From: a virus
Virus record (IMG/VR): IMGVR_UViG_3300045988_146036
Coordinates: 1-64,000 of that record
Length of the DNA stretch: 64,000 nt
Strand: one strand, 5' to 3'
This document shows positions 335-63,103 of this stretch, in pieces. The number at the start of each line of letters is the position of its first letter. Position 1 is the stretch's first letter. The position numbers and the translations under genes were made by a program. The notes below the pieces were generated by a model. The model did not search any database, was not told where the DNA came from, and saw only the letters and a program-made list of their open reading frames with translations.

Positions 335-363
335 ATTATACAACACTTTTCACTATTTGTCAA
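335..363 (-). promoter_or_regulatory. sigma-A type promoter TTGACA-N17-TATAAT (minus strand)
   Basis: Minus strand reads TTGACAaatagtgaaaagtgttgTATAAT; -35 at 358-363, -10 at 335-340. Confidence 0.6.
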
Positions 364-512
364 TCCACAAAATCAAAATAATGGTTATATGCAGAAATAA
401 GATGCTTCCTGCCATCATTAAACTCCGCTATGTACATTAAGTTATCATTATCAAATTTAATAGATTTTAGCATAGATACTTTATAGCTGATTATAGCTTT
501 ATTGCCCTTCAT
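360..512 (-). CDS. small hypothetical ORF (50 aa, below tool cutoff)
   Basis: ATG at 512-510 reads MKGNKAIISY...; fills an otherwise empty gap; weak RBS. Confidence 0.25.
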   Translation of the reverse strand: MKGNKAIISYKVSMLKSIKFDNDNLMYIAEFNDGRKHLISAYNHYFDFVD

Positions 513-541
513 TAAAACTACTTTCACTTCTTATAACCCCC

Positions 542-703
542 TTAATAGCGGTATCCGTCTTTATAAAGCAACATACGCTTTACACCGCAAGCACCTGCTG
601 GGAGTCCCCAGCTATGACAATCATGTGTGTTCTTGCGCTCATAGTGTGCCAACTTTTTTGTAAGCTGTTTCATACTTGCTTTATGTTTTCTAATACTTTT
701 CAT
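542..703 (-). CDS. small hypothetical ORF (53 aa, below tool cutoff)
   Basis: GGAGG RBS then ATG at 703-701, reads MKSIRKHKAS...; Cys/His-containing. Confidence 0.3.
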   Translation of the reverse strand: MKSIRKHKASMKQLTKKLAHYERKNTHDCHSWGLPAGACGVKRMLLYKDGYRY

Positions 704-730
704 TTTCTGTACCTCCCAGGAATATTTTTG

Positions 731-928
731 TTATTCCGCAATGTTTTCAAGAATACAACGCAAATATTGCTCATCCTCTCCATATGGTAATTGCCACTTA
801 AAATCATAACTACCATTAGGCAATTCCTGCATTTCATAGTCAACGCCTGCCAGCTTGCAAGCGGCTATTGCTGCATAAATGTAACCACTGCTAATATTAA
901 GATATTCATATGTTTGTTCATATTTCAT
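731..928 (-). CDS. hypothetical protein (65 aa)
   Basis: ORF only. Confidence 0.35.
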   Translation of the reverse strand: MKYEQTYEYLNISSGYIYAAIAACKLAGVDYEMQELPNGSYDFKWQLPYGEDEQYLRCILENIAE

Positions 929-947
929 ATACCATTACCCCCCTAAT

Positions 948-1175
948 TTATTTATTATCCCATACTTCTCTATACCTTGACTGCGCATATGCAATATTGC
1001 CGCCATCAATAATGATATACTCTATTTTGCTTTCACGTCCTCTTACAATAATTACATTGTGTTTATCAATTAATACATAACTGTGCAATTCATTCTCAAT
1101 GAATGACTTAATTGGTATCATTCGTCTTTCACTCTGCACGTTTACAATATGCTTTTTATTCTGCTTCGCTTTCAT
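948..1175 (-). CDS. hypothetical protein (75 aa)
   Basis: ORF with AAGGAGG RBS; promoter at 1234-1262 upstream. Confidence 0.4.
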   Translation of the reverse strand: MKAKQNKKHIVNVQSERRMIPIKSFIENELHSYVLIDKHNVIIVRGRESKIEYIIIDGGNIAYAQSRYREVWDNK

Positions 1176-1233
1176 TTAATAGCCTCCTTATGTAATCAGT
1201 AGTACCTTCATTTCCTTTAACTACCTTGACTAT

Positions 1234-1262
1234 ATAATACCATAGTTCCTATATACTGTCAA
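1234..1262 (-). promoter_or_regulatory. sigma-A type promoter TTGACA-N17-TATTAT
   Basis: Minus strand reads TTGACAgtatataggaactatggTATTAT. Confidence 0.5.
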
Positions 1263-1316
1263 GCACTTTTTATAAATTTGCAAGAAAAAATGCAGTAAAT
1301 AATTACCGCATAAGCT

Positions 1317-1556
1317 CTAATCATTGTACATATCGTACAACAACTCCAAATGATTTTTAAGGTTTAAATCAAAAAGCTCCATTAAACACTCAACTTCAAT
1401 AAGCTTTCTAGTAATTACCTTTTCATTTCCTCTATAAAAGGGACTATTTGTCTTTCCAGATACTTTATACTCTCTACGTGTCTGATAAGCACGTTCTAAG
1501 GCAATCAAGCTATGATGAAGTTTCAAAAATGCTTTTTCTTTAACGTCGTTTTTCAA
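1317..1556 (-). CDS. hypothetical protein (79 aa)
   Basis: ORF only. Confidence 0.35.
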   Translation of the reverse strand: MKNDVKEKAFLKLHHSLIALERAYQTRREYKVSGKTNSPFYRGNEKVITRKLIEVECLMELFDLNLKNHLELLYDMYND

Positions 1557-1642
1557 TTTAATTCCTCCAGTTCTTTTACAAAATCATAAATACCAAAAAG
1601 GATAAAAGGATAAAAGGTATATAAAATGCTCCTACCAAATAC

Positions 1643-1669
1643 TCTCCGTGGTAAATCATCCACAGAGAG
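1643..1669 (-). terminator. possible hairpin terminator downstream of the 1718-2203 gene
   Basis: Inverted repeat ctctccgtgg/ccacagagag (9 of 10 bp) with 8-nt loop, then a modest T-rich stretch on the minus strand. Confidence 0.3.
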
Positions 1670-1717
1670 ATTTGGAAAGTCAGCAGTATAAACACAAAGT
1701 ATATAGCCAACAATAAT

Positions 1718-2203
1718 TTATTCAATATCAATGTACCCCCAAGGTGTTTCCTCTACCCCTTCGGAAATTTCATTATACACCTTATCATGCAAGCTTTTTG
1801 TAATTGCCTCATTGTCATAAACATATGAGATTAAATCTTTGCCATAAAACTTGCAATGTTTTACCTCGTAATCTAAGTCATTGCAGCTCCAACAAAGAAA
1901 GTTATAAGGTGTTGCATAAAACAATGCGTTGATAAGGTCTTTATCATAACTATCATAAGCATACTCCAAGAAGTTCATAGCGTTTTCAAGAGTTACACCG
2001 CCTCCCATATCACCGAAGGAAGTTTCTGTAATAACTCCTGCAACTCCGTCTACATTTTTAACATTAAAGATGTGTTTCAAGTCTACTTTCAACTCATCCC
2101 AATCTGCATAATTAAGCAAGTTAACATTATCTTCCTTGCCGTTAAGAGTAATGTTTACATTAATAAATGCGTCTGTTTTCATTGTTAAATACCTCGCTTT
2201 CAT
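1718..2203 (-). CDS. acidic hypothetical protein (161 aa; true start probably the second ATG, MKTDAF...)
   Basis: D/E-rich ORF; the first ATG lies only about 12 nt from the -10 of the promoter at 2215-2243, so the downstream ATG with a GAGGT RBS is the likelier start. Confidence 0.4.
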   Translation of the reverse strand: MKARYLTMKTDAFINVNITLNGKEDNVNLLNYADWDELKVDLKHIFNVKNVDGVAGVITETSFGDMGGGVTLENAMNFLEYAYDSYDKDLINALFYATPYNFLCWSCNDLDYEVKHCKFYGKDLISYVYDNEAITKSLHDKVYNEISEGVEETPWGYIDIE

Positions 2204-2385
2204 TTGATGTGTCTATTATAGCATCTTAAAAACCGTTTGTCAACACTTATTTTTGAAAAAGCTTCAAAAATTATTCGGTACAAACATATTGTTGCAAAAA
2301 CGCCGCTTATAAAAAGGTGCGCTTTGAATGTAAGAATCACAATAGCTGCCATACATAGAATTAAAATAAAAATAATATAATTCAT
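2200..2385 (-). CDS. small membrane protein (61 aa)
   Basis: N-terminal hydrophobic helix MNYIIFILILCMAAIVILTF; GGAGG RBS. Confidence 0.4.
   Translation of the reverse strand: MNYIIFILILCMAAIVILTFKAHLFISGVFATICLYRIIFEAFSKISVDKRFLRCYNRHIK
2215..2243 (-). promoter_or_regulatory. sigma-A type promoter TTGACA-N17-TATAAT
   Basis: -35 at 2238-2243 and -10 at 2215-2220 (minus strand). Confidence 0.55.
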
Positions 2386-2414
2386 TCTACCCTCCTATAA
2401 AAATTCCCCTTATC

Positions 2415-2443
2415 AGTCTAACACGTCAAAGGGGAATTGTCAA
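2415..2443 (-). promoter_or_regulatory. possible promoter with TTGACA -35 and weak -10 (TAGACT)
   Basis: TTGACAA at 2438-2443 on the minus strand; -10 is poor. Confidence 0.3.
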
Positions 2444-3172
2444 TTACAAATAGCTGTCTGTATCTAAACAATAAAATGCATCATATAATAAGTAGAAATC
2501 TCCTGCTTCCTTTGTAAATTCCCTGTCAAAATGATAATGTCCAAAGAACCATTTAAACTTATGATTTTTTGTACATAAATGTTTATATAGCTTTTCTAAT
2601 TGTTTCGTAGAAATTGTTGGCTGCACACTGTCAATACATCTTGCTACATATAAATCTGTAAGAATAGATGTAGGACAACAATGTGTTATAATGCAGTCTA
2701 CATTATCAGAATTTTTTATAGCGTTTTCAACTTCTACATCTTCAATCGTTTCCTGTTCCCACCAGGATAAGTTTGGCGTTCTAAGAAATTTATCATGTGA
2801 CTCCGCTCCACCTAAAGCAAGGAATTTTTTGCCGTCAATGAGGAAGCTTTCACCACGTACTAAATGATAACATTTATTACATAGTTTTTGTACCTTACCT
2901 CCCCAACGCTTTGTAATTGGAAATTCTTTGTAATCATTCAATCTTGCAAAGTTTTCGTGGTTTCCGTCGCAGAAAAGCACTGTACATTTTAGTTTCTGTA
3001 TAAAAGCACGTAATCTTTTCTTCTCATCTAAAACACCCTTCTTTAAAGAAGAATGTGTCCATACCCAACCAAAATCTCCGCATATAATTAGGAAATCTTC
3101 TGATTTAAAATCAACTCCGTCAAACTTCCAAGTATCAAAATTTTGGTGGATGTCGCCTGTAATATAAATCAA
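2444..3172 (-). CDS. calcineurin-like metallophosphoesterase
   Basis: Motifs GDIH...GDFG...GNHE typical of the MPE superfamily. Confidence 0.65.
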   Translation of the reverse strand: MIYITGDIHQNFDTWKFDGVDFKSEDFLIICGDFGWVWTHSSLKKGVLDEKKRLRAFIQKLKCTVLFCDGNHENFARLNDYKEFPITKRWGGKVQKLCNKCYHLVRGESFLIDGKKFLALGGAESHDKFLRTPNLSWWEQETIEDVEVENAIKNSDNVDCIITHCCPTSILTDLYVARCIDSVQPTISTKQLEKLYKHLCTKNHKFKWFFGHYHFDREFTKEAGDFYLLYDAFYCLDTDSYL

Positions 3173-3658
3173 TTAGCACCCCTCCATATTAAGCTTTTTC
3201 CACTTCTTAATAATTCCCTTCAAAGGAAATACACAGTATCCCATTTTTTCCAAGGAAATAAGAATGTGTCTTTTATCTCTTAAAGCAGGTTTATCATGTA
3301 AATGTCCATGAATATTTACATCTTGCGAAAAACGCTTTAATGGTTTATGTGTAAAAATAATATTAATTCCCATATAGTCCATTGTAAATGAATCACATGC
3401 AAAGTCAAAGACTTTCATAAAAGCCTCGCAGGAATGTTTATCGTGATTTCCTCTTACAAGAATCTTTCTTCCATGCAATTTTTCAAGAACACTATAATCA
3501 TTTCGCCAAGAAATATCCCCTAAGAGAATGACAATATCTTCATCCTTTACCTGCTTATTCCAATTTCTAATAAGCTTTCGTTCATAATCTTTTGGGCGCA
3601 AACCGCTCTCAATCATCATATCATGGTTGAAGTGCGTGTCAGCTACAAGATAAATCAT
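3173..3658 (-). CDS. calcineurin-like metallophosphoesterase (second, tandem)
   Basis: Motifs ADTHFNHD...LGDI...GNHD; start abuts the stop of the upstream gene. Confidence 0.65.
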   Translation of the reverse strand: MIYLVADTHFNHDMMIESGLRPKDYERKLIRNWNKQVKDEDIVILLGDISWRNDYSVLEKLHGRKILVRGNHDKHSCEAFMKVFDFACDSFTMDYMGINIIFTHKPLKRFSQDVNIHGHLHDKPALRDKRHILISLEKMGYCVFPLKGIIKKWKKLNMEGC

Positions 3659-3897
3659 AATATCCCCCTTATCTTCAAATAAAGCTCCACAGGCATATAA
3701 ATAGACTGATTGTATGGGAGTAGCGTCACAGCCGTTAGCTGCTTCTTTTCCTCCGTTTCAAGCTCATTCCTATGTAGCTCGAATAAACAGTTAATTAAGG
3801 AATATAGTTGTTTAGTAGTTGTTACTTTTACAGTAATCATGTTACTGCCTCCTTTCTTTGATATATTAAGTATAACGCAATCTTCACAGAATGTCAA
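3655..3897 (-). CDS. hypothetical protein (80 aa)
   Basis: ORF with 4-nt overlap coupling. Confidence 0.35.
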   Translation of the reverse strand: MTFCEDCVILNISKKGGSNMITVKVTTTKQLYSLINCLFELHRNELETEEKKQLTAVTLLPYNQSIYMPVELYLKIRGIL

Positions 3898-4388
3898 GCA
3901 TTAATATTATATCCCTCTATATGCGCCAGCTTACTTAAATCTAAGTTGTAATTATCTACAAAACCTTTTAACAAACTTTTCCTCAACTTTCTAGGAAATC
4001 TCATAAAATATTCATATGTATTCATATTTAACCAAGCATTTGTTAAAGCTTCTGTTGAGGCCAAGCTAAATACCATGCGTCTAAAAGCATCTTCATATTG
4101 TATTGGTATATCTTCTGTGTAAGACATTTTCCTATACTGCAAATTATGTTTAAAAAGTATATAAAAAGCTTTTTCCTTTAATGATGTGGGAAGTGCATTT
4201 AAAAACTTCTTATAAAAGGCACATACTCTTCTATACCCATAAGCTCTACGCTCAGCATAACTATAAGAAAGACTGTAATCAAAACTATCATACTGTTTAT
4301 AGCGTCTGGAACGCTTATGGTATCTGTTATAGGTACATGACCAATCAAACCAATCCCCACTTTCAAACATATAATCTTCTGCACTCAT
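3894..4388 (-). CDS. hypothetical protein (164 aa), Tyr/Arg-rich
   Basis: ORF with AAGGAGG RBS; promoter at 4411-4439. Confidence 0.4.
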   Translation of the reverse strand: MSAEDYMFESGDWFDWSCTYNRYHKRSRRYKQYDSFDYSLSYSYAERRAYGYRRVCAFYKKFLNALPTSLKEKAFYILFKHNLQYRKMSYTEDIPIQYEDAFRRMVFSLASTEALTNAWLNMNTYEYFMRFPRKLRKSLLKGFVDNYNLDLSKLAHIEGYNINA

Positions 4389-4410
4389 ATGAATACCTCC
4401 TTATGTGCTT

Positions 4411-4439
4411 ATTATAACAGAAAAAGCGCACCATGTCAA
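4411..4439 (-). promoter_or_regulatory. sigma-A type promoter TTGACA-N17-TATAAT (extended -10 TGt)
   Basis: Minus strand reads TTGACAtggtgcgctttttctgtTATAAT. Confidence 0.6.
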
Positions 4440-4449
4440 GTGCGCTTTT
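4422..4449 (-). terminator. rho-independent terminator hairpin overlapping the -35 of the next promoter
   Basis: Perfect 10-bp inverted repeat aaaagcgcac/gtgcgctttt followed by TTTTTCTGTT on the minus strand. Confidence 0.5.
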
Positions 4450-4450
4450 A

Positions 4451-4744
4451 TTATTTTACTTCTTCCCAAGCATGATAAACATATTCTACTTTCCGCACCT
4501 TGCATAATTTAATTGTAGAATTATTCTTATTTAAAGTTGCACCCCAAGTAGTATCTTTATAAACAAAGATAGTATAGCTAACATTACTTGCGTTTAAATG
4601 GGAACCTCCTTTTTCTAGCGCATGTGCTTGTACTGTGTTCCAAAATAAATTACCTTCAATATCCGTAATTAGAATAGTACTCCCATTCTGAATCTTATTA
4701 AATACAATATCAAAGTTATTATCATAGGGAAATTCTGTAATCAA
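4451..4744 (-). CDS. hypothetical protein (97 aa)
   Basis: ORF only. Confidence 0.35.
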   Translation of the reverse strand: MITEFPYDNNFDIVFNKIQNGSTILITDIEGNLFWNTVQAHALEKGGSHLNASNVSYTIFVYKDTTWGATLNKNNSTIKLCKVRKVEYVYHAWEEVK

Positions 4745-5187
4745 TTACACTTCACCACCTTCCACCAATATCGTAAAGCTTTTCCTTCGGGAACGTCTTT
4801 ATCATCAAGCCAAGCTTTTGCAATTTCAACAAATTTTACATCCTCTACAATACCTGCATAATCGCTTGCAATCATATTAAGTGTAAAATACCAATCAAAT
4901 TTATTATATTTTTCCCAACTTAAACCAAGTTTTTCAGCCGCAGCCACACAAGCAGGGAATGTATAAGTTTCCCCTTTAGTGCCGTTTATATTATCCATAC
5001 CTTGTACAGCTTCTGTTGCAAGCTCACTATTAAAATGCTCGCCATAAAGATATGTGTACATTGGATAAAAAGCTTTTTGCATAACAGGCTTTCCAACAAC
5101 TTCTTCAAATTTTTTAAAGAAATTCTCTTGTTCAGTTTTATTAGAAAATTCGTCCATAATAGTATTAAAAAGTTTTAAAGTTTCCAT
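4741..5187 (-). CDS. hypothetical protein (148 aa)
   Basis: ORF; GGAGG RBS. Confidence 0.4.
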   Translation of the reverse strand: METLKLFNTIMDEFSNKTEQENFFKKFEEVVGKPVMQKAFYPMYTYLYGEHFNSELATEAVQGMDNINGTKGETYTFPACVAAAEKLGLSWEKYNKFDWYFTLNMIASDYAGIVEDVKFVEIAKAWLDDKDVPEGKALRYWWKVVKCN

Positions 5188-5189
5188 AT

Positions 5190-5384
5190 TTATACCTCCT
5201 TACGTGTATAGGCTACACCTGCGTATAAATAAACGCTGTCTTTTTGCTCTAATAAGCACTCTAAGACATATTCTTTATTATCAATCACTACTAAAACAGG
5301 TGCGTTCTTTTTACTAATATCTTTAAAAAAATCTTGCACAGTTTTAACACTTAAAGTATCTGGCGTTTTAGTTGGAGTATACAT
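5190..5384 (-). CDS. hypothetical protein (64 aa)
   Basis: ORF; GAGGTGA RBS. Confidence 0.35.
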   Translation of the reverse strand: MYTPTKTPDTLSVKTVQDFFKDISKKNAPVLVVIDNKEYVLECLLEQKDSVYLYAGVAYTRKEV

Positions 5385-5484
5385 TAGTTATCACCTCTTT
5401 CCATTAAATACAGAAGATACAATGTGATACATGCAAAGGCGTAAGAACCAAACATGAAAAAGCAGAATACGTAATTTTCGTCCA

Positions 5485-5718
5485 TTATTTCACCTCAATA
5501 TAAGTCTTGCCAATTTTAAGTTCATTGCAAATTCTATTAAAGTCAAACACCGCTTCTTTATAGCTTGCATACTCTTTAGCTGTCGTAGTATAAAGCCCTG
5601 AAGTCCTAATTTTTAAAGCAGTGTTATTATTAGTGTCAGTGCTTAAAAATACACTTATAACATTCATAAAAATCGTATTATTACAACGAAATATAAACAT
5701 TTTAATTACCTCTTTCAT
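5485..5718 (-). CDS. hypothetical protein (77 aa)
   Basis: ORF only. Confidence 0.3.
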   Translation of the reverse strand: MKEVIKMFIFRCNNTIFMNVISVFLSTDTNNNTALKIRTSGLYTTTAKEYASYKEAVFDFNRICNELKIGKTYIEVK

Positions 5719-6094
5719 ATAAAGACTTGTTCATATTACAAAGTATTCCTTCTTTACGTGTTACCCATGCAGTAACGACATATCCACTCTTTGCAATAAC
5801 ATAAACATAAGACTTAAATCTATCAACTCTTATGCTTATGCAGGCTTTTTCAATTACGCCATTTTCAACATAAACCTCGAAAATATTACCCCTTGTTCTT
5901 GCAATAGCTGCATTTATTTGGGGAATTTTTGTTCTCCCCTTTTTGCCAAGTTGCTGCAAAAAGTGTTTTGAATACGTCAGTTGCGGCAAATTCTTCAAAA
6001 AGCCGTCTAAGTCTAAAAATACTGGAAAATATACATCTTTATGATACCGTTTCATAGTAACCTCCTTTTCTTTGTTACCTATATAGTACCACAT
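5702..6094 (-). CDS. hypothetical protein (130 aa)
   Basis: ORF with GGAGG RBS directly downstream of the promoter at 6083-6111. Confidence 0.4.
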   Translation of the reverse strand: MWYYIGNKEKEVTMKRYHKDVYFPVFLDLDGFLKNLPQLTYSKHFLQQLGKKGRTKIPQINAAIARTRGNIFEVYVENGVIEKACISIRVDRFKSYVYVIAKSGYVVTAWVTRKEGILCNMNKSLYERGN

Positions 6095-6111
6095 TTTCTA
6101 AACATTGTCAA
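6083..6111 (-). promoter_or_regulatory. sigma-A type promoter TTGACA-N17-TACTAT
   Basis: Minus strand reads TTGACAatgtttagaaaatgtggTACTAT, then GGAGG and ATG. Confidence 0.55.
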
Positions 6112-6191
6112 GCACTATTTTTAAATTTATAGGTATTTATACCTACATTCACTTTTGAACGCATACAAGCCAAATCTGCGTGCCTGGGATA

Positions 6192-6222
6192 TATAAATAA
6201 AGAGTGCTCCGTTAGGAGCACC
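6192..6222 (-). terminator. rho-independent terminator of the flotillin gene
   Basis: Hairpin gtgctcc-gtta-ggagcac followed by a T-run on the minus strand. Confidence 0.55.
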
Positions 6223-6230
6223 CTTGCTAA

Positions 6231-7676
6231 TTAAGACTTTTTAGCTGCATTTTTAACAGGAATTGCTCCTTTAATAGCAACATTCTTATTAACCTTTGCA
6301 TCAATGGTATTTGCGTCTGCAATAGCTTTCAAATCTACACCAGTAGCAGATTTCATGGTATCAAAAACTTGCGCCATAACAGTAGGGGTATTTCCTGCCA
6401 AAGTGCTAACATCACCATTGCCATACACTTTCATTTCCTTAATGTTGGAAAGCGGTGTTGCAATAGCCTTTGCAACTTCTGGGAGAACCTTAATAGCCAT
6501 TTCAGCCATAGCTGCCTTGCCATACTCTTTCATAGCCTCTGCTTTTTTCTGCAAAGCCTCTGCTTCTGCCAAGCCTTTTGCTTTAATAGCCTCTGCTTCT
6601 GCCAAACCTTTTAATCGAATAGCTTCTGCTTCCTTTTCAGCACTATATTTCAAAGCTTCTGCTTGTTTTTGCTGTTTAGCAAGTTCTGCCTCTGCATTTT
6701 GTTTAGTAACAAAAAGGTCTGCTTCTGCCTCTTTTTCACGGCGATACTTTTCAGCATCTGCTTGTCTGCGTACTGTTGCATCTAAGCTCTTTTCTTGTAC
6801 CTTTGCTTCCTGCTCTTGCAAAGCTACTTCTTTTTCACGCTGCGCAATTTCAGCTTCCACCATACGTGTTTTAAGAATCTTATCTTGTTCTGCTTCTTTA
6901 ATGTTGTAAGCTGCGTCTGCTTCTGCTTGCTTAATGTCTGCCTCTTGTTTAAGTTCAGACTTACGAATTGCAACTTCATTCTGTTTTTCTGCAATTTGTT
7001 TAGCACTGTTCATTTTTGCTTCATTAGCTCGTTTATCTGCTTCTGCTTGTGCAATTTGAACATCACGTTCAGCCTCTGCTTTAGCAATTTGAGCTTGCTT
7101 ACGAATTTGTGCGATATTGTCAATACCTAAATTGTTAATAGCATCACAATCATCTGTAATAGACTGAATATTGAAAGACAATACTTCAATACCAAGTTTT
7201 CCCAAATCTTCAACAGCACTGGACTGTACTTTATCAGCAAGCTTTTGGCGGTCATTTACCATTGCTTTTAATTCCATAGAACCTGCAATATCACGCAAAG
7301 AACCTTCCAAAATTTGACGTGCAGTAACTTCGATTGCATCTTCATCACGATTTAAGAAGTTGACACATGCAAGTTTAATGCTTTCAGTATCATTCTTAAT
7401 CTTTACAGTAGCAAAAGCATCCAAGTTGACGTTGATATAATCAGTTGTTGGTACAGAATCTGATGTATTAACATCAACATTTACCAAACCAAGATTAATA
7501 TAGTCAAGACGCTCCAAGAAGGGAATTTTAAAACCTGCTTTACCAATATAGATACGTGGCTCTTTAGAGAAGCCGCTTACAATACCTGCCATATCAGTAG
7601 GGATTTTAAAGTATCCCTTAGTAAAAATAATCATAAGTGCAAATAAGATAATAATTCCTGTAATAATAAGTACCAA
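6231..7676 (-). CDS. flotillin / SPFH (band-7) family membrane protein
   Basis: N-terminal TM helix, SPFH-like core (PFLERLDYINLGLVNVDVN...), and a long Ala/Glu/Lys coiled-coil with AEAEA repeats typical of flotillins; TTG start. Confidence 0.7.
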   Translation of the reverse strand: MVLIITGIIILFALMIIFTKGYFKIPTDMAGIVSGFSKEPRIYIGKAGFKIPFLERLDYINLGLVNVDVNTSDSVPTTDYINVNLDAFATVKIKNDTESIKLACVNFLNRDEDAIEVTARQILEGSLRDIAGSMELKAMVNDRQKLADKVQSSAVEDLGKLGIEVLSFNIQSITDDCDAINNLGIDNIAQIRKQAQIAKAEAERDVQIAQAEADKRANEAKMNSAKQIAEKQNEVAIRKSELKQEADIKQAEADAAYNIKEAEQDKILKTRMVEAEIAQREKEVALQEQEAKVQEKSLDATVRRQADAEKYRREKEAEADLFVTKQNAEAELAKQQKQAEALKYSAEKEAEAIRLKGLAEAEAIKAKGLAEAEALQKKAEAMKEYGKAAMAEMAIKVLPEVAKAIATPLSNIKEMKVYGNGDVSTLAGNTPTVMAQVFDTMKSATGVDLKAIADANTIDAKVNKNVAIKGAIPVKNAAKKS

Positions 7677-7761
7677 TTTAAATTCTCCTTTATTTTAAAA
7701 ATGTTTGTAGATTATAAGAGTTTTTAAATCGGCGGTGAACGAATTAACATAAAGACACCTC

Positions 7762-8187
7762 TTATTCCTTAATTTCATCCTCCATAAACCACTCAAATGT
7801 TAAATTGTACTCTGTCATAAGTAATGCACGTGCAATAGTATCAATAGGCTGGTGCATTACCGCTTCATAGACGCAGGCTTCGATACTTCTATCCATATTT
7901 TCCACAGCCATAATAGTACAGTGAAGTAATTCGTGAATTAAAACAAGTTCTTCACAATGTTTAAAAACAAGGTCTACATCTGTACAATGCGAGATTGTAA
8001 TTATGGCTGTTTTAGTTGAATGAGTAACATTATTAATGCCGTCACAAGTATCGTTACCCTCTTTAATAGCCTCATCTACAAGTTTTGTTTTAATCAGCCA
8101 ATCATTTAGCTGCAAAATTCCTTGCCATTTCCGAGTAGCTTGTTGCAACTCTTTCTCATCTTTAAAACACATAATTGGTTGCTTCAT
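7762..8187 (-). CDS. HExxH-motif protein, possible ImmA/IrrE-like metallopeptidase
   Basis: Motif LIHELLHCT (HExxH); 141 aa. Confidence 0.3.
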   Translation of the reverse strand: MKQPIMCFKDEKELQQATRKWQGILQLNDWLIKTKLVDEAIKEGNDTCDGINNVTHSTKTAIITISHCTDVDLVFKHCEELVLIHELLHCTIMAVENMDRSIEACVYEAVMHQPIDTIARALLMTEYNLTFEWFMEDEIKE

Positions 8188-8333
8188 TTTAAATTCTCCT
8201 TTTCGATTGTTGCACGAATATTAGCAATAGCTTTACGCAAGTAGTCAAGTTCACCACTACTACGCCACATATCTATACAGAAACTTACTGTCGCAGCCAA
8301 ATTTGCTTTCTCTACTTCGGTTTGCCATGTCAT
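8184..8333 (-). CDS. small ORF (49 aa) translationally coupled to the HExxH gene
   Basis: TAAGGAG RBS, ATG at 8333-8331, stop TGA overlaps the downstream ATG (ATGA). Confidence 0.35.
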   Translation of the reverse strand: MTWQTEVEKANLAATVSFCIDMWRSSGELDYLRKAIANIRATIEKENLK

Positions 8334-8345
8334 TTTTACCACTCC

Positions 8346-8699
8346 TTACTTACATAATGATTCTTTAATGTATATCTTGAATCTACATCCATTATAACAC
8401 AGCTTTGAAAAGCTGTCAACAGGAATTTTAAAGATTGATTGAAAATTTTCATTCTCAGAACTTGTATCAATACATATAAGAAATTCCTTTGAAATATAGA
8501 CTACAAAACCATAAGTAAAATCCTCACCCCCCTCATCAATAACAATGCGAACAGGATAATGATTTGAAGCATAAATACAACTTGCTAAGAATTTTAAATT
8601 GCCAGTATTTACTACCAATTTATCACTTGACTCTGTAAGTATGTATTTAGGGAACTCTTTTTTACGTTTAATTTCAGTTACCGAGATTTTCATTTTCAA
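8346..8699 (-). CDS. hypothetical protein (117 aa)
   Basis: ORF; promoter at 8735-8763. Confidence 0.4.
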   Translation of the reverse strand: MKMKISVTEIKRKKEFPKYILTESSDKLVVNTGNLKFLASCIYASNHYPVRIVIDEGGEDFTYGFVVYISKEFLICIDTSSENENFQSIFKIPVDSFSKLCYNGCRFKIYIKESLCK

Positions 8700-8734
8700 T
8701 CACCTATAAATAAAGCCTTTCTGAATGTGCTTTT

Positions 8735-8763
8735 ATTATAACACACCCAAAAAGGCTTGTCAA
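8735..8763 (-). promoter_or_regulatory. sigma-A type promoter TTGACA-N17-TATAAT (extended -10)
   Basis: Minus strand reads TTGACAagcctttttgggtgtgtTATAAT. Confidence 0.6.
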
Positions 8764-8769
8764 CTACTT

Positions 8770-9852
8770 TTATTCTTCTTTTAGCAAAAAAGTTGGGGAA
8801 ATCGCTTTAAAGGAAATTCCCTGCTCATAATTTCTGCAAACAATACCTTCACGCTCTTGTGTATCAAGTAATACACTTTTACCACTCGCAAGATTGTTTA
8901 AGGTCTGTAAATCACTTGGCACATTGATACGCTTATAAACTACTGGCACTGTTTTAATGCGAAATTCTTTAAGAAGCTCTTCCATTTTTACTTGTGAAAC
9001 TTTAATGCCGTCAAGAATTAAATTATAAGCATAAAAATCATACCCACTAATCTTATATTTATTAGCTTGGATATTTTGCCCAATAATCTCACCTTGTAAA
9101 ACAACTTTTCTAAAGCCAAAGCAATCTTGAATCTCCTTTAAAGCCTCCTCAATCTGAAAGCGTCTTGCAATTTCCCAATAGGGCGAATTATCTTCCTTAC
9201 GTAGCCAAATATTTCTACTGCAAACCCCAAAAGTGCCGCCGTCTAAAAAGAAAGTTGAACTGCAGCCGTCGATTTTCTCTGTACAAGTTAGCGGAACACT
9301 ATCAGAACGCCATTGTTCAAGCTTATCAGTAATATTTTGCCAGCGTTCTTCATCAGTCTTGCTTGCAATGTAAGTAGGGAACTTTTCATTCTGTACATGG
9401 AATTTTGCATATAAGCGTCTAAACCAACGGAAACGCATTAAAGGCTTCCATAAGAATGTGAATCTTCCTTTTGGGGCAGCAACTGCCATGATTTTATTCT
9501 CTGCTTCAAGTTGCGGGTCAAATTTCGTAATATTCAATACTTTAGTTACATCTTCACCAACAGCGTATTCTTTATTTGGCAAGTAACTTAAAGGCAGAAT
9601 CAAACCTTGTGAAATCTGTTTGCGCAATTTAATAGTCTTAATGCGGTACTTTCTGTCTTTAAGGAACGCAAATTCTGGTCTTGCAGGGAGTACAGAATCT
9701 ACTTCAATATACACTACTTTATCGCCTTGCTGAAAGTTGTCACTCTTACTTACAACACATTCCCAACCTTTTACAGTTGCTTTTAAAATTCTATCTGCAT
9801 TTGGAATAGGCTCTAATTTATCTATAATTTCTACACTTGCTAATTTTCTCAT
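8770..9852 (-). CDS. ATP-dependent RNA/DNA ligase, Rnl5/DraRnl-like (N-terminal OB domain plus nucleotidyltransferase)
   Basis: N-terminus MRKLASVEIIDKLEPIPNADRI (OB-like as in NgrRnl/DraRnl); motif I TEKIDGCS (KxDG); motif IV EGIV; motif V FKAISPTFLLK. Confidence 0.55.
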   Translation of the reverse strand: MRKLASVEIIDKLEPIPNADRILKATVKGWECVVSKSDNFQQGDKVVYIEVDSVLPARPEFAFLKDRKYRIKTIKLRKQISQGLILPLSYLPNKEYAVGEDVTKVLNITKFDPQLEAENKIMAVAAPKGRFTFLWKPLMRFRWFRRLYAKFHVQNEKFPTYIASKTDEERWQNITDKLEQWRSDSVPLTCTEKIDGCSSTFFLDGGTFGVCSRNIWLRKEDNSPYWEIARRFQIEEALKEIQDCFGFRKVVLQGEIIGQNIQANKYKISGYDFYAYNLILDGIKVSQVKMEELLKEFRIKTVPVVYKRINVPSDLQTLNNLASGKSVLLDTQEREGIVCRNYEQGISFKAISPTFLLKEE

Positions 9853-11741: not shown

Positions 11742-11743
11742 TT

Positions 11744-51966: not shown

Positions 51967-51995
51967 ATTATATCATATAATTAAGATTTTGTCAA
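51967..51995 (-). promoter_or_regulatory. sigma-A type promoter TTGACA-N17-TATAAT
   Basis: Minus strand reads TTGACAaaatcttaattatatgaTATAAT. Confidence 0.55.
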
Positions 51996-52002: not shown

Positions 52003-52037
52003 AAAAAAAATAAAATAAGGGTGTATAAAACACCCTT
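52003..52037 (-). terminator. rho-independent terminator after the major tail gene
   Basis: Hairpin aagggtgt-ataaa-acaccctt followed by TTATTTTATTTTTTTT on the minus strand. Confidence 0.55.
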
Positions 52038-52048
52038 AAAATTAATTA

Positions 52049-55015: not shown

Positions 55016-55056
55016 TTGTAACCTCCATTTAAGAAAAAGGGAGAATAAAATCTCCC

Positions 55057-55335
55057 TTATTTTTGACCTTCTTCACTAGACTGTGTATCACTACTAACAG
55101 GCGGTGGTGATGTAGCTAATGCCGCGTTTACTGCACTAGCAAATTCAACACTTCCTGCTTCTGAGTTAAGCACAATATCTTTACTTATTCCTACTTTATC
55201 AGCAACAGCTTGCGGATTTTGCTTCATGTAGAATACATCATCCGCAGTTACACCCTTGCCAATCAGACTTGCTAACTTGGCAGGGGCTTGCTGTGCATAT
55301 AAAGCATCACTAGCGGTAATAGCCATTAGTGACAC
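55057..55335 (-). CDS. possible head decoration/fibre protein (92 aa)
   Basis: Ala-rich, immediately downstream of the capsid gene. Confidence 0.3.
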   Translation of the reverse strand: MSLMAITASDALYAQQAPAKLASLIGKGVTADDVFYMKQNPQAVADKVGISKDIVLNSEAGSVEFASAVNAALATSPPPVSSDTQSSEEGQK

Positions 55336-60389: not shown

Positions 60390-60552
60390 TACAACGGAAA
60401 ATAGCCCTTGACAGGCTATTTAACTATTCTACAAAATAGAATCCGTATTTTACTCTAATTAATCTATTTTTATATTTTGGAATTTTCAAATAATTATTAT
60501 ACTCATTCTTTGTAATTCTTCTCATTAGAATAACTCCTTACTTTATATTTAC

Positions 60553-60581
60553 ATTATATCATAAAATTAACAGTTTGTCAA
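60553..60581 (-). promoter_or_regulatory. sigma-A type promoter TTGACA-N17-TATAAT
   Basis: Minus strand reads TTGACAaactgttaattttatgaTATAAT; drives a 35-aa ORF and the terminase gene. Confidence 0.55.
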
Positions 60582-60598
60582 TAGATGTTAATTTATTA

Positions 60599-61408
60599 TT
60601 AAGATTTCATTATCTGCATAAATTCATCATCTGTCCACAAAAACAAATCTGTACTTTTATGTCTATTACCTTTGTTCATCTGTGCTATAAAGCAGCCAGG
60701 TACACCAACACGCATACCATGATATTTTGCATAATTAGGGTAAACTTGAAAAGTACCGCTCCATACCTCATAAACAATTCTAGGGCAGGGTGTCTTTTCA
60801 AATTTGTTATGCTCTATAATAACCTTTTCCTTTTTATAGCGTTGATGATGATGCTCTCTCCACGTAACATCCGCATTTACCCAATCCCAAACACCATCAC
60901 GTTTAGGGGATAAATGCTGAATAAAATGTACGAAACAATTCTTGCCTACATTAAAATAAAGAAAGCAAAACTCTTCTTTATAAATGTCGGGCTTGCCTAT
61001 TAAAGTAGCTAACATCTTCTCTGGAGTAAAATAAACATCATGCTTCAATCTTCCCGCCCAATGATTACCCTCTATAATATAGAGGATTCTATCTGCATAG
61101 GGCTTTAAAATCTCAGCTAATTGGTATACTTGGTCGTCGCCAACACTCCACTCTTCATGTAGGTCACTCTTACTTAATTTAGTTGCGCCGTTACCTGCAT
61201 CACCACCAATTCCCACGTATAGATTAGGAATACTCATTAAATACTTAAATGTTTTCTCGAAAAGTTCTTTATTACATAAACCCCAATGTATGTCGCCTAA
61301 ATTTACAAAGTAGGCGACATCTGCTTCTGTTCTAAAACGCACGATATGCTTTTTTAAATCTTGGTAAATATAATCTTCTTTTGCTTTCATATATTCTCCC
61401 ATAAGCAC
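60599..61408 (-). CDS. calcineurin-like metallophosphoesterase (third)
   Basis: NLGDIHWG...GGDAGNG...GNHW motifs. Confidence 0.55.
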   Translation of the reverse strand: MLMGEYMKAKEDYIYQDLKKHIVRFRTEADVAYFVNLGDIHWGLCNKELFEKTFKYLMSIPNLYVGIGGDAGNGATKLSKSDLHEEWSVGDDQVYQLAEILKPYADRILYIIEGNHWAGRLKHDVYFTPEKMLATLIGKPDIYKEEFCFLYFNVGKNCFVHFIQHLSPKRDGVWDWVNADVTWREHHHQRYKKEKVIIEHNKFEKTPCPRIVYEVWSGTFQVYPNYAKYHGMRVGVPGCFIAQMNKGNRHKSTDLFLWTDDEFMQIMKS

Positions 61409-62496
61409 TCTTTAGTGTCTTTATTAAATCTAAATTCCTTAACCCTTGGGTGTCGCAGACTCTTAGTATTTTGATTTATAACTTCTTGGTATTCTACCTC
61501 TACAACAATGTCGAACATTTTAGAAGTATGTGTCTTAATAAACTCTTGGTCTGCATCACTAAAACCTTTAGCGGTGGTTACATAAGTAAGTTCTCCATTC
61601 TTATAAGCACCTAACTTCAAGCCTGCGACCCAACCCTTTGCATAGGTTTTAGTTACAGGTTCATCACCTTCCCAATACTGCCAACCACGAACGCGCAGCT
61701 CATCAACTGTAAATTTTCCAGTATACTTCTTTATCGGTGGTTCAAACCCCATTACAACTAAGTCCGCGGTTTTCTTCGCTTTAAATTTTAACCATTCCTT
61801 AGAACGCTTATCCTGCTTATAAATAGATGTAGGGGACTTTAAGATAAGCCCTTCACCACCACAACGTCTTATAATATCAAAGCAGTTTTTAAAAGAATCT
61901 ACTAATATTAGATTCTTTCCTATCTTTGCAGCAAGTCTATTATCCAAAAGATTGTATAATTCCTTCTTAAAATAGAACCTTGTAACCTCGTAACAGCTAT
62001 TTAGTACATAATCACCCATTTTAGTAAGATAATCTTCTAAGAGCATAAGAAATGAAATGCGCGTTAATAAAGGTTCTTTCTCTAGGTCAAGCCCTTGGAA
62101 CTTAATTACATCAAAAATCTTGTATTGTAATCTAGTACCTTGTTCCCATAATTCTTCTGCTCTTTCTGGTGTAGAACCCAACAACTGCTGCACCTTTGAA
62201 GAGTTTGTGTTACCGCCTTGCATTACAAGCTCACCATCAAAAATGCTATCTTTAAAGTCTGAAAATGGAAACGCACACATCTTTTTAAGCCTGTCTGTAT
62301 TATCTTCTTTTTCACCAGTGACTTTACTTGTACGTCTACTGTAAAAATGAACAAAACCTTGTTGGTCAACATACATTATTGCTCTATGTCCATCAAATTT
62401 TTCCTGTGCTAAAAAGTTAGGACTCTCTAAGGCATCCATATCCCCCTCTGCACAAAGCATAGGTGCAATGTTTGGATTGATACAACTATTTAGCAA
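61387..62496 (-). CDS. ATP-dependent DNA ligase
   Basis: Motif I EKFDGHRAIMY (KxDGxR), motif IV GGEGLILK, motif V WLKFK. Confidence 0.7.
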   Translation of the reverse strand: MLNSCINPNIAPMLCAEGDMDALESPNFLAQEKFDGHRAIMYVDQQGFVHFYSRRTSKVTGEKEDNTDRLKKMCAFPFSDFKDSIFDGELVMQGGNTNSSKVQQLLGSTPERAEELWEQGTRLQYKIFDVIKFQGLDLEKEPLLTRISFLMLLEDYLTKMGDYVLNSCYEVTRFYFKKELYNLLDNRLAAKIGKNLILVDSFKNCFDIIRRCGGEGLILKSPTSIYKQDKRSKEWLKFKAKKTADLVVMGFEPPIKKYTGKFTVDELRVRGWQYWEGDEPVTKTYAKGWVAGLKLGAYKNGELTYVTTAKGFSDADQEFIKTHTSKMFDIVVEVEYQEVINQNTKSLRHPRVKEFRFNKDTKECLWENI

Positions 62497-63058
62497 TTCG
62501 CATTACCTCCAAAACATTTAACACTGCCCTTTCAAGAGCTTCTTTTGTAGAATCATTTACTATTTTAAAATCCCATAACTTCCAATCGTCTAAATCTACC
62601 TCACTAGAATTAGAACGCTGTTTTGAAGTTAGATGATTTTTATAATTAGGACGTTCAACTCGTATTGTGACAACTGGAACATCGTTATCTTCACCAAATT
62701 TTAAGACCTGCTCAATCTCATTTTTATAGCGCGTATCAGGAATAACTACTAATAAGCCATCTGTTTCGCTTTTAAGAGAATGATTACAAGCGCTTCTTAG
62801 ACTACGCAGCATTTCATTTACCCAAATGTTTGGGTTATAATTCCTGCCGCCATCCCCAATCATTTGTAATAACGCTCTTCCTGCTTTATCCTTTTTACCA
62901 TCCCAACCAAAAGAATGTGTAGCGATAAACTTTACAGGACTTGCAAAGTGCCAATTATATGCGTTTCCAAATTTTGCTTGCTTACCTAATATAATATTCG
63001 CTACGGTATCTTTTCCGCTTTCAGCTTTACCACTAATTAAAATTATCATTTTCTTCAT
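62486..63058 (-). CDS. deoxynucleoside monophosphate kinase (T4 gp1-like)
   Basis: MKKMIILISGKAESGKDTVANII aligns to the T4 dNMP kinase N-terminus MKLIFLSGVKRSGKDTTADFI. Confidence 0.6.
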   Translation of the reverse strand: MKKMIILISGKAESGKDTVANIILGKQAKFGNAYNWHFASPVKFIATHSFGWDGKKDKAGRALLQMIGDGGRNYNPNIWVNEMLRSLRSACNHSLKSETDGLLVVIPDTRYKNEIEQVLKFGEDNDVPVVTIRVERPNYKNHLTSKQRSNSSEVDLDDWKLWDFKIVNDSTKEALERAVLNVLEVMRIAK

Positions 63059-63074
63059 AATATCACCTAATAAT

Positions 63075-63103
63075 ATTATAACATAAAATTAAATATTTGT
63101 CAA
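63075..63103 (-). promoter_or_regulatory. sigma-A type promoter TTGACA-N17-TATAAT
   Basis: Minus strand reads TTGACAaatatttaattttatgtTATAAT. Confidence 0.55.

Follow-up and report, generated by a model that had tools for sequence, protein, structure and literature searches.

Consensus promoter-like sequences recur on one strand of the 64-kb window analysed here, which represents two thirds of the ~100 kb genome of an uncultivated phage from human-type metagenomes. The question raised by this stretch is whether these sequences function as promoters and, if so, which RNA polymerase reads them. The phage is distantly related to Bacillus phage BCD7 and all genes in the window are carried by the minus strand. 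The evidence assembled below argues that the sites work as promoters and are read by the host RNA polymerase with its housekeeping sigma factor (sigma-A / sigma-70 group 1), a reading to which we assign a probability of about 0.88.

A motif scan for TTGACA-N17-TATAAT returned 13 exact matches, all on the minus strand, as compared with 0.00 expected from dinucleotide shuffles (0.17 when spacers of 16 to 18 are admitted). Two intergenic sites with one mismatch (1234 and 3869) bring the total to 15, in agreement with the original prediction of fifteen near-identical minus-strand promoters. The match scores are bimodal: 13 sites reach 12/12 and the two intergenic sites 11/12, while matches of 10/12 or less occur on both strands as often as in shuffles. 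TTGACA by itself is not enriched (47 observed, 43.1 expected) and the enrichment is therefore specific to the composite motif. The extended -10 (TGn), which had been described as frequent, is present in 12 of the 13 exact sites, with 335 as the sole exception, and the full TRTG in ten. All sites are collected in Table 1.

Table 1. Promoter-like sites and associated features in the window (minus strand throughout; downstream genes are those predicted to be driven; L-numbers denote relatives)
Coordinates	Strand	Feature	Upstream signature	Predicted downstream genes	Remarks
63075-63103	-	exact promoter, TGn	GGGGTA	dNMP-kinase-like 62486-63058, then ligase and repair-exonuclease-like 60599-61390 (PHROG 7339)	syntenic counterparts kept in L003, L004, L005
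60553-60581	-	exact promoter, TGn		33-aa ORF 60424-60525, large terminase, portal, scaffold, major capsid	syntenic exact promoters: L003 9809, L004 8609, L005 9791
52016-52038	-	intrinsic-terminator-like hairpin with U-run			ends head module, immediately upstream of 51967
51967-51995	-	exact promoter, TGn	AGGGTA	tail module, 51593-51928 onward, ~20 kb to lysis genes	syntenic exact promoters: L003 19234, L005 19929
34999-35289	-	stand-alone sigma-70 region-4-like HTH protein, 96 aa			Pfam Sigma70_r4_2
34962-34972	-	extended -10-only site (TATGCTATAAT), poor -35			gap after region-4-like gene
32011-32030	-	intrinsic-terminator-like hairpin			after endolysin gene, directly upstream of 31971
31971-31999	-	exact promoter, TGn		gene starting at ATG 31937	
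29742-29770	-	exact promoter, TGn		44-aa ORF 29554-29688, then DnaC-like, DnaB	
25521-25549	-	exact promoter, TGn	TGGGTA	primase, SSB, DNA polymerase, RecA, RusA	exact promoter after DnaB also in L010 and L011, at 11245
16130-16158	-	exact promoter, TGn	GGGGTA	SpoVS homolog 15756-16037	92-nt gap to ATG; in L008 hexamers intact, spacer strongly diverged
14731-14759	-	exact promoter, TGn	AAAGTG	14311-14709, on to QueC, DpdA-like gene, RNA ligase	
8735-8763	-	exact promoter, TGn			spacer and -10 within 19-bp hairpin 8713-8758 (-25.7 kcal/mol, z = -6.1), -10 forming the loop
8391-8419	-	exact promoter, TGn		8184-8333	within 3' end of ORF 8346-8699; L008 lacks ORF 8184-8333 and the counterpart directly precedes the next gene
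6083-6111	-	probable weaker promoter TTGACA-17-TACTAT, TG	TAGTGC	5702-6055	hexamers identical in relatives
4411-4439	-	exact promoter, TGn			-35 hexamer is loop of terminator hairpin 4422-4449 (-17.9 kcal/mol, z = -4.2)
3869-3897	-	one-mismatch promoter TATACT, no TG		3655-3840	
2415-2443	-	doubtful site TTGACA-17-TAGACT			overlapped by terminator-like hairpin downstream of gene 2444-3172; only site with -10 differing in relative
2215-2243	-	exact promoter, TGn			within 3' end of ORF 2200-2385
1234-1262	-	one-mismatch promoter TATTAT, TGn	AAGTGC	948-1175	hexamers identical in relatives
335-363	-	exact promoter, no TGn		40-303	

Every site is followed by a Shine-Dalgarno sequence and start codon, 16-92 nt beyond the end of the -10, and the predicted +1, a conserved pyrimidine-A, lies 7 nt past the -10. 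Pooling of this genome with a close strain gave 37 promoters, of which 36 have T-15, 33 G-14, 34 Y-1, 32 A+1 and ~30 A at -43/-42. The claim that every major intergenic gap carries a promoter was overstated, as a crude gene map gives ~14 of ~23 real gaps of at least 45 nt. No further consensus promoter occurs within the 20-kb stretch from tail to lysis genes (51.9 to 32.0 kb). Three promoters (63075, 8391 and 2215) each reach into the 3' end of the ORF upstream. The TGA within TTGACA is the stop codon of ORFs 360-527 (site 335), 16155-16688 (RusA homolog, site 16130) and 25546-25710 (site 25521), one case more than the two foreseen, and ORFs 63089-63505 and 29757-31244 (helicase) stop within the spacers of 63075 and 29742. 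Of the three promoters thought to lie inside longest-ORF calls, only 31971-31999 does so, in 31602-32003. ATG 32003 reads ATT in relative L009 and is therefore not the start. Site 2215-2243 sits 12 nt upstream of ATG 2203, outside ORF 1718-2203; this start is nevertheless wrong too, since a 1-nt insertion in L008 throws it out of frame, and the true start is ATG 2182. At least two starts thus need re-annotation, as had been proposed. The proposal fails for 29094-29612, the N-terminus of which holds no consensus promoter: 29742 lies 130 nt upstream of that ORF, and the match at 29371-29398 reaches just 10/12 and lacks TG.

Comparison of spacer conservation, put forward as a check with the original prediction, spoke for the promoters. 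In 35 distinct variant alleles of related strains, from 11 loci, none of 490 -35, TG and -10 positions was changed, while spacers varied by 10.7% and flanks by ~6%. Comparison with a relative ~94% identical in DNA gave 0/102 differences in the -35 and 1/102 in the -10, versus 10.9% in the spacer and ~6% in the flanks (Fisher p = 5e-5). Purifying selection therefore acts on exactly the sigma-contact positions. Relatives at 62-70% protein identity carry exact consensus promoters at syntenic positions within intergenic sequence that is otherwise unalignable. Outside the window, the consensus promoters of a leftward gene arm are on the opposite strand and include a divergent back-to-back pair; this joint switch of promoters and genes was counted in favor of functional promoters. 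The sequence of the sites, their statistics, placement and orientation and the selection acting on them are all direct observations.

From these observations we infer use by the host holoenzyme, promoter strength and any timing. In each promoter, A/T-rich sequence precedes TTGACA(A), the spacer is exactly 17 bp long and contains a -16 TRTG element of Gram-positive type, and TATAAT is followed after 7 nt by the pyrimidine-A start site. Such an essentially optimal promoter would be expected to recruit the host polymerase without an activator. The sites resemble the Gram-positive '-16 region' or extended -10 promoters of sigma-A, which have TRTGnTATAAT and A/T tracts of UP-element type, in their TGn and TRTG, the A-tracts at -43/-42, the 17-bp spacer and Y-1/A+1. 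To our knowledge, cellular promoters almost never match all elements at once, whereas nearly all sites here do. The TRTG, the strong Shine-Dalgarno sequences, the kinship with BCD7 and the SpoVS homolog suggest the sigma-A of a Firmicute; against such a host, phages infecting Gram-negative bacteria have proteins similar to the J-like tail protein and the M15 endolysin with its single domain. A further observation counted against host sigma use is that the phage has a 7-deazaguanine DNA modification cluster and that the G of TTGACA is part of a GA dinucleotide, the target of some phage DpdAs (PMC10484667), a point that bears on sigma contact with the -35 of virion DNA.

The early promoters of SPO1 are classic host sigma-A promoters and offer a close parallel, with clusters of strong promoters placed before many small ORFs without assigned function and terminators interspersed. 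In the SPO1 terminal redundancy, the site of these promoters, five near-consensus promoter-like sites with AAAAAGTG-TTGACA...TGn were found, and AAAAAGTG-TTGACA-N14-TGn-(T/A)ATAAT is common to SPO1 bases 1-14000 and to the class I promoters of the present phage. However, the 13-kb SPO1 module has no exact site and five one-mismatch sites as compared with 13 exact sites in 64 kb here, where replication, head and tail operons have them too. A later switch takes SPO1 to its own sigma factors (gp28, gp33/34), whereas the Pfam hits recorded for the present phage include no full sigma. The early promoters of coliphage T5 and the A1-A3 promoters of T7 are likewise optimised so that they win the housekeeping holoenzyme over host promoters. 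In T5 and T7 the strong host-polymerase promoters are restricted to early regions and later classes use a modified or phage polymerase; here, in contrast, the same consensus also heads late structural operons and is conserved in relatives.

The alternative that survives best, although improbable, is that the promoters are not simply constitutive and fall into two classes, regulatory or temporal, told apart by the 6 nt that abut the -35 on its upstream side: (A/G)GGGTA, preceded by a T-tract, in one and AAGTGC/AAAGTG with an A-tract in the other. The signatures GGGGTA and AAAGTGC do divide the promoters into two genome regions. Taken in genome order, 11 of the first 14 promoters (leftward arm, divergent pair, nucleotide-metabolism, head, tail and replication promoters to 16130) have TA at -37/-36, while the 23 that follow, beginning with 14731 and including the small-ORF/ArdA region, all lack it (Fisher p = 4e-7). 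GGGTA is retained even within coding sequence, at the ...GY* C-termini of ORFs 16155-16688 and 25546-25710. Some delay would be needed for head and tail genes, and perfect promoters heading these genes leave temporal control unaccounted for, which was counted against the host-sigma reading. A phage factor might discriminate between the classes as a repressor, an activator or by sigma appropriation. The phage does encode a member of a sigma region-4-like protein family (34999-35289) that might play this part, but its tie to the classes is pure conjecture. Moreover, the 62-70% relatives do not keep the GGG and show AAAATTTTA(C/TA) at their equivalent promoters, operator-like symmetry is absent, and the signatures could reflect common descent of promoter cassettes per region or two UP element flavours.

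It is very unlikely that a phage-encoded sigma or RNA polymerase mimicking the housekeeping consensus recognises the sites instead of the host holoenzyme. The motif is the exact group-1 sigma consensus, TRTG and UP-like tract included, and the same architecture is seen in the SPO1 terminal redundancy. The precomputed Pfam hits for the genes called in the window and in 20 kb of flanking sequence, most of these genes having no hit on record, include no phage RNA polymerase, full-length sigma or sigma region-2 protein; the inspection covered all but ~12 kb of the roughly 100-kb genome. The complete reliance on the host housekeeping sigma claimed originally goes too far, since the protein encoded by 34999-35289 is a candidate transcription regulator of the phage. 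Its Sigma70_r4_2 match lies just below the cutoff (E = 1.8e-5), but in its family 21 of 28 members match this domain (best E = 8e-11). Among its fold matches, sigma region 4 domains rank first, though not significantly. BCD7, the closest cultured relative, shares the one-strand gene layout and syntenic replication, recombination, queuosine-DpdA and head genes (26-50% protein identity). It differs in carrying 30 copies of another motif, ACTWTTACCA, which like the region-4-like protein is a point in favor of a phage factor, and in its annotated sheath and baseplate genes (contractile tail), the tail genes here being without BCD7 match. The absence of any exact consensus promoter from its 93.8 kb was counted against host sigma use.

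A similarly low probability is given to the repeats being mainly recombination or shuffling cassettes, or binding sites of a non-transcriptional protein, with promoter likeness secondary. T4-type PeSLs are promoter-early stem-loop cassettes (PMC2839356, PMC4122927) and likewise combine terminator hairpins and early promoters between small variable genes. Stem-loops are fused to 4411 and 8735 (hairpin 8713-8758 would form only in read-through RNA), terminator-promoter pairs occur at 52.0 and 32.0 kb, and ORF 8184-8333, immediately after 8391, is present or absent between strains. Unlike PeSLs, the copies have no long conserved cassette sequence: only ~14-20 specified bases are common while spacers and flanks differ, which is too little homology for recombination. 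Selection on exactly the sigma-contact positions also opposes this view. No evidence emerged for gene shuffling by the composites. Strain indels mostly represent intron, intein or homing-endonuclease events, and the majority map within genes and away from promoters, several of them at positions where such insertions are found in other strains; gene-content breakpoints tend towards no enrichment at promoters. Chance occurrence in AT-rich DNA (GC ~35%), which would account for the weaker matches of up to 10/12, is refuted for the 13 exact sites, as none of 100 shuffles reaches even two and the sites are one-stranded, upstream of genes and invariant across strain alleles.

With host polymerase recruitment as the favored reading, the promoters provide the usable transcript map that had been anticipated. 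Together with the terminators they would split the window into ~16 transcription units, comprising nucleotide metabolism (63075), head (60553), tail to lysis (51967), helicase (31971), replication (29742 and 25521), SpoVS (16130) and 7-deazaguanine modification genes (14731). From 9 kb downward, small ORFs would follow in closely packed units of one or a few genes. This series extends at least 10 kb past the window, includes an ArdA anti-restriction gene and may represent an early, host-takeover-like region. In a lytic phage, conserved consensus promoters at the head of operons are nothing out of the ordinary.

A pattern search of the window for TTGACA-N17-TATAAT returned 13 exact matches, all with a 17-bp spacer and all (13/13) on the minus strand; 100 dinucleotide-preserving shuffles gave a mean expectation of 0.00. 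Widening the spacer to 16-18 nt added no site (expectation 0.17). The TGn of an extended -10 is present in 12 of these 13 sites and the full TRTG in 10. An independent consensus scanner applied to the window produced bimodal scores, with 13 sites at 12/12 and two intergenic sites at 11/12, and matches at 10/12 or below appeared at shuffle-level frequency on both strands. The fifteen minus-strand consensus promoters of the original prediction are thus recovered as 13 exact sites and two with a single mismatch (1234 and 3869). TTGACA by itself is not enriched (47 copies against 43.1 expected) and TGnTATAAT is (19 against 6.7), 12 of its 19 copies belonging to exact promoters, which identifies the composite promoter as the enriched object. 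In the following, each promoter is named P plus the lower plus-strand coordinate of its 29-mer.

Promoters, credible terminators and gaps devoid of promoters in the window, with the transcription units inferred from the promoters and terminators (exact promoters originate from the pattern search)
Feature	Position	Strand	Remarks
Exact consensus promoter	63075	minus	inferred unit: nucleotide and ligase genes
Exact consensus promoter	60553	minus	inferred unit: small ORF, terminase, portal, capsid
Exact consensus promoter	51967	minus	inferred unit: about 20 kb of tail genes, lysis genes last
Exact consensus promoter	31971	minus	inferred unit: helicase
Exact consensus promoter	29742	minus	inferred unit: replication and recombination
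Exact consensus promoter	25521	minus	inferred unit: replication and recombination
Exact consensus promoter	16130	minus	inferred unit: SpoVS homolog
Exact consensus promoter	14731	minus	inferred unit: QueC, DpdA-like gene, RNA ligase
Exact consensus promoter	8735	minus	
Exact consensus promoter	8391	minus	
Exact consensus promoter	4411	minus	
Exact consensus promoter	2215	minus	
Exact consensus promoter	335	minus	
Inferred units	8763 downward		one promoter per 0.3-2.2 kb, before small ORFs
One-mismatch intergenic promoter	3869	minus	TATACT
One-mismatch intergenic promoter	1234	minus	TATTAT, with TG
Plausible sixteenth site	6083		TACTAT, TG
Doubtful site	2415		TAGACT
Terminator	55037-55058	minus	downstream of capsid gene
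Terminator	52016-52038	minus	directly before P51967
Terminator	33510-33527	minus	
Terminator	32011-32030	minus	directly before P31971
Terminator	15732-15753	minus	after SpoVS
Terminator	6200-6225	minus	
Terminator	4422-4449	minus	
Terminator	1290-1311	minus	
Gap without promoter (among others)	51516-51592		
Gap without promoter (among others)	34933-34998		
Gap without promoter (among others)	21525-21681		
Gap without promoter (among others)	7677-7761		
Gap without promoter (among others)	5385-5484		

The approximately 105 genes of the window all lie on the minus strand and the GC skew is negative throughout. The distance from the end of each site to the start codon downstream is 16-92 nt, and almost all of these starts have an AGGAGG-type Shine-Dalgarno sequence in front of them. 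In the leftward arm outside the window, which consists of about 9 kb of oppositely oriented genes, consensus promoters are found on the opposite strand and include a back-to-back divergent pair. Promoter orientation therefore tracks gene orientation, and the uniform minus orientation within the window merely reflects a one-strand gene layout. The two exact promoters of the divergent pair (575-603, minus, and 1028-1056, plus, on L026, the sequence beyond the window on the leftward-arm side, about 9 kb past the right end) both display the GGGTA signature and form the split point between a short leftward arm, with DNA methylases and a PAPS-reductase-like gene, and a long rightward arm.

Promoter anatomy was derived from an alignment of 37 promoters, of which the window supplied 17, the 10-kb flanks of an identical ENA scaffold 18 and a close strain two. 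The -16 element is conserved as T-17 (27/37), R-16 (33/37), T-15 (36/37) and G-14 (33/37), so that the TRTG of Gram-positive extended -10 promoters is found at its usual place, from -17 to -14. Adenine occupies -43/-42 in about 30 of the 37, and the start site, exactly 7 nt past the -10, reads Y-1 (34/37) and A+1 (32/37). By its sequence this is a complete, strong promoter of the Gram-positive housekeeping type, comprising an UP-like tract, -35, -16 element, -10 and initiating purine. The hexamers with their spacer, the placement before genes with a purine start, and purifying selection were each tested as attributes of housekeeping sigma-70/sigma-A promoters and all were found.

Megablast of 20 kb against GenBank phages gave no match and relatives were identified using tblastn: Bacillus phage BCD7 shares the terminase, portal, capsid, replication, recombination and queuosine/DpdA genes at 26-50% identity. 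Many copies of this phage and its relatives are present in IMG/VR and ENA/Logan, among them the 102-kb ENA scaffold BRIT16-1_SAMN02334072 scaffold_161, identical to the window across the overlap. Seventeen sites were compared with an IMG/VR strain of 91-96% DNA identity. The -35 hexamers display no difference (0/102) and the -10 hexamers a single one (1/102), located in the doubtful P2415, against 26/238 (10.9%) in the spacers and 5.6-6.2% in the flanks (Fisher p = 5e-5). In a pool of 35 distinct alleles from 11 loci, no change is found in the -35 (0/210), the TG (0/70) or the -10 (0/210), a total of 0/490, against 45/420 (10.7%) in the spacers and about 6.3% in the flanks; the nominal probability of about 1e-14 is overstated, the alleles not being phylogenetically independent. 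Despite this kinship of the alleles, the pattern of purifying selection on the sigma-contact positions is unambiguous. In relatives at 62-70% protein identity, exact consensus promoters stand at the corresponding syntenic positions, namely ahead of the dNMP-kinase gene, of the small ORF with the terminase and of the first tail gene, and behind DnaB; their spacers and flanks are unrelated in sequence. The feature is real, backed by overwhelming statistics and under evolutionary constraint, and the promoters are very probably functional.

Two of the promoters overlap hairpins. In P4411 the -35 hexamer forms the loop of a terminator hairpin (-17.9 kcal/mol, z = -4.2), and in P8735 a 19-bp hairpin (-25.7 kcal/mol, z = -6.1) takes in the spacer and the -10; this hairpin could form only in RNA reading through from upstream. 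The general proposition that spacers hide hairpins was rejected as weakly supported (mean z = -1.1), the effect being driven by a few sites and by the TRTG/CAYA symmetry around the -10. Promoter and stem-loop form a composite at 4411 and at 8735, adjoin as a pair at 52.0 kb and at 32.0 kb, and are not combined at most other sites. These terminator-promoter fusions recall the PeSLs of T4-type phages, cassettes that are defined by a long repeat and a role in shuffling (PMC2839356, PMC4122927). Neither the long repeat nor the shuffling role was observed here, as the copies share only the sigma-contact bases and most indels relative to related phages fall inside genes. Several of the strain indels fall at sites that are occupied in other strains by homing-endonuclease, intron or intein insertions.

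The sequences indicate that the population is polymorphic for such homing elements. In other strains (loci L003, L027-L029 and L032; window position ~55684), HNH/LAGLIDADG insertions split the major capsid gene, and the RNA ligase (window ~9257) carries an intein with LAGLIDADG. In the window, the family-A DNA polymerase (20444-23442) is apparently split into an N-terminal ORF (21682-23442) and a C-terminal ORF (20444-20917), with an HNH endonuclease ORF (20991-21524) in between, and is a single 673-aa gene in strain L032. Rfam searches (gathering threshold over the whole window; E-value mode over 20.3-21.8 kb) and a tRNA scan gave no match, so the split polymerase is not assignable to a known intron family. 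For the same reason, no riboswitch or leader RNA accounts for the 92-nt untranslated region which separates P16130 from the ATG of the SpoVS homolog (region 15756-16158). This gene has its own consensus promoter and its own terminator, and two further TATAAT copies are contained in its leader.

The small-ORF region is particularly dense, with nine sites between 335 and 8763, nearly one per small gene. The same regime runs at least 10 kb past the window into L022, the sequence beyond the other end, where about 13 more sites and an ArdA gene are found. The whole looks like an early region of the host-takeover type; a scan of viral contigs with a small early protein from L022 yielded no relative. 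This region also encodes a Band7/flotillin-like membrane protein (481 aa, 6231-7676), mostly deleted in IMG/VR strain 143506. Elsewhere, a radical SAM protein of 407 aa (37610-38833) is encoded amid the tail and tail-fibre module.

The statements made on individual ORFs and gaps fared unequally. Three longest-ORF calls had been proposed to contain promoters, which holds for 31602-32003 only. This 133-aa ORF, used by a public gene call too, includes P31971 and its start is wrong: ATG 32003 is ATT in a relative, and ATG 31937, preceded by a Shine-Dalgarno sequence, is conserved. P2215 is not inside 1718-2203 and ends 12 nt upstream, yet the start of this ORF does require correction, as a 1-nt insertion in a relative puts ATG 2203 out of frame and leaves ATG 2182 as the start. 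An ATGA overlap at 2200-2203 between the stop of a small membrane ORF (2200-2385) and ATG 2203 resembles translational coupling; this was discarded since ATG 2203 is not a conserved start in the comparative data. No consensus promoter is present in the N-terminus of 29094-29612: P29742 lies 130 nt upstream and serves a 44-aa ORF (29554-29688), and the start of the long ORF is likely 29564 on account of Shine-Dalgarno placement and overlap, not of a promoter. The embedding of stop codons in -35 elements was confirmed, the TGA of TTGACA ending three ORFs (360-527, the RusA homolog 16155-16688 and 25546-25710), and two more ORFs have their stops within promoter spacers. A promoter had been announced in every major intergenic gap; about 14 of the approximately 23 genuine gaps of at least 45 nt contain one and the rest do not.

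The most likely mechanism, judging from these near-optimal sequences, is that the promoters would recruit the host housekeeping holoenzyme directly. Neither a phage RNA polymerase nor a sigma factor with region 2 was found among the precomputed Pfam hits of genes called in the window and in 20 kb of flanking sequence, most of these genes having no hit on record. The complete reliance on the host sigma that had been proposed is nevertheless not established, because a sigma region-4-like gene is present at 34999-35289, an extended -10-only site (TATGCTATAAT, 34962-34972) lies behind it, the analysis covered all but about 12 kb of the ~100-kb genome, and the pointers to the host conflict. The gene encodes a stand-alone 96-aa protein from a family of about 45 clusters. 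In this family Pfam Sigma70_r4_2 is hit by 21 of 28 members (best E = 8e-11), whereas the protein of the window itself falls just under the cutoff (24.7 against 25.7 bits), and the top fold matches of its AlphaFold model (pLDDT 74) are sigma region-4 domains, at non-significant level. A distant member in contig L069 is likewise located a few genes upstream of a helicase; further distant members sit on contigs whose short length makes their gene context uninformative.

The TRTG element, the strong Shine-Dalgarno sequences, the kinship with BCD7 and the SpoVS homolog point to a Bacillota host. The SpoVS homologs do not single out a host group, those at 40-49% identity being scattered among Clostridia, Chloroflexota and Thermotogae. 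Similarity to proteins of phages infecting Gram-negative bacteria is seen in the J-like tail protein and the single-domain M15 endolysin. The endolysin (32034-32459) is devoid of a wall-binding domain and the lambda-J-like protein (42092-45106) has 1004 aa; their best hits, in phages of Gram-negative bacteria and in Microviridae, conflict with the kinship between the core genes and those of Bacillus phages. The right edge of the window (63502-64000) cuts into the 3' end of a gene for an anaerobic ribonucleotide reductase (NrdD), whose glycyl-radical motif reads RRTCGYIG; its presence suggests a host that is anaerobic or facultative.

Among known systems, the genomic arrangement comes closest to the early-promoter cluster of phage SPO1, whose host-takeover module shares with the present region dense strong sigma-A promoters before small ORFs, together with terminators. 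The 13-kb SPO1 module contains no exact and five one-mismatch consensus sites, compared to 13 exact sites in the window. In SPO1 the phage's own sigmas take over for later genes. In contrast, the head, tail and replication operons here all start from this one consensus, which is conserved across the clade for head and tail, and no SPO1-like set of later genes on non-consensus promoters read by phage sigmas was observed, the Pfam hits on record for the called genes including no full sigma. BCD7, the nearest cultured relative, has no exact consensus promoter and carries 30 copies of ACTWTTACCA, most of those listed on the gene (minus) strand, which may constitute a phage-specific promoter or regulatory motif; the window shows no enrichment of it. 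The promoter regime is therefore a specific trait of the uncultivated lineage. Literature searches on BCD7-like phages and on consensus-promoter phages turned up nothing on this lineage in particular.

The 6 nt that adjoin the -35 are of two types, segregated along the genome. Type one, (A/G)GGGTA or xxxCTA, has TA at -37/-36 and a T-tract between about -52 and -47. It is found in 11 of the 14 promoters that come first along the genome, namely those of the leftward arm, the divergent pair, nucleotide metabolism, head, tail, replication and SpoVS. Type two, an A-tract with AAGTGC/AAAGTG, characterizes essentially every one of the 23 that follow, which extend from window 14731 up to where the small-ORF region ends (TA at -37/-36 in 11/14 against 0/23, Fisher p = 4e-7). 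Early promoters of SPO1 are located in its terminal redundancy, and the near-consensus promoter-like sites found there (aaaaagtg-TTGACA...TGn) match type two. The GGG of type one is kept even within coding sequence; GGGTA as a clade-wide element was rejected, being absent in the 62-70% relatives. The GGG signature could represent temporal classes, a regulator site or common descent of neighbouring promoters.

A 7-deazaguanine DNA-modification cluster, syntenic with BCD7, is found at 9849-15327 (DpdA-like transglycosylase of 630 aa, QueC and a QueE-like gene). GA is the target motif of some phage DpdAs (PMC10484667, PMC7544227). Every TTGACA contains this dinucleotide, and sigma may therefore have to read a modified -35. 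It is conceivable, and in our estimation distinctly unlikely, that the clade runs its whole programme, head and tail included, on optimal housekeeping-sigma promoters timed by the 6-nt element (GGGGTA or AAAGTGC) through a phage factor, possibly the 34999-35289 protein, on DNA whose -35 guanine is possibly 7-deazaguanine-modified.

The feature class is ordinary, and every testable property of sigma-70/sigma-A extended -10 promoters is present. Strong host-type promoters in lytic phages are textbook knowledge and current understanding is not overturned. Of continuing interest are the use of perfect promoters for late genes, the two upstream signatures, and the presence beside these promoters of a sigma region-4-like protein and of a 7-deazaguanine DNA-modification cluster. 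The analysis provides a reliable, comparatively validated, inferred transcript map and corrected gene starts for a prevalent uncultivated ~100-kb phage of human-type metagenomes, and these natural optimal promoters, with their TRTG and UP-like tracts, may serve as strong parts in low-GC bacteria. It also raises the questions of how head and tail genes are timed when their promoters equal the early ones in perfection, and of whether the housekeeping sigma tolerates 7-deazaguanine in its -35 and TG contacts.
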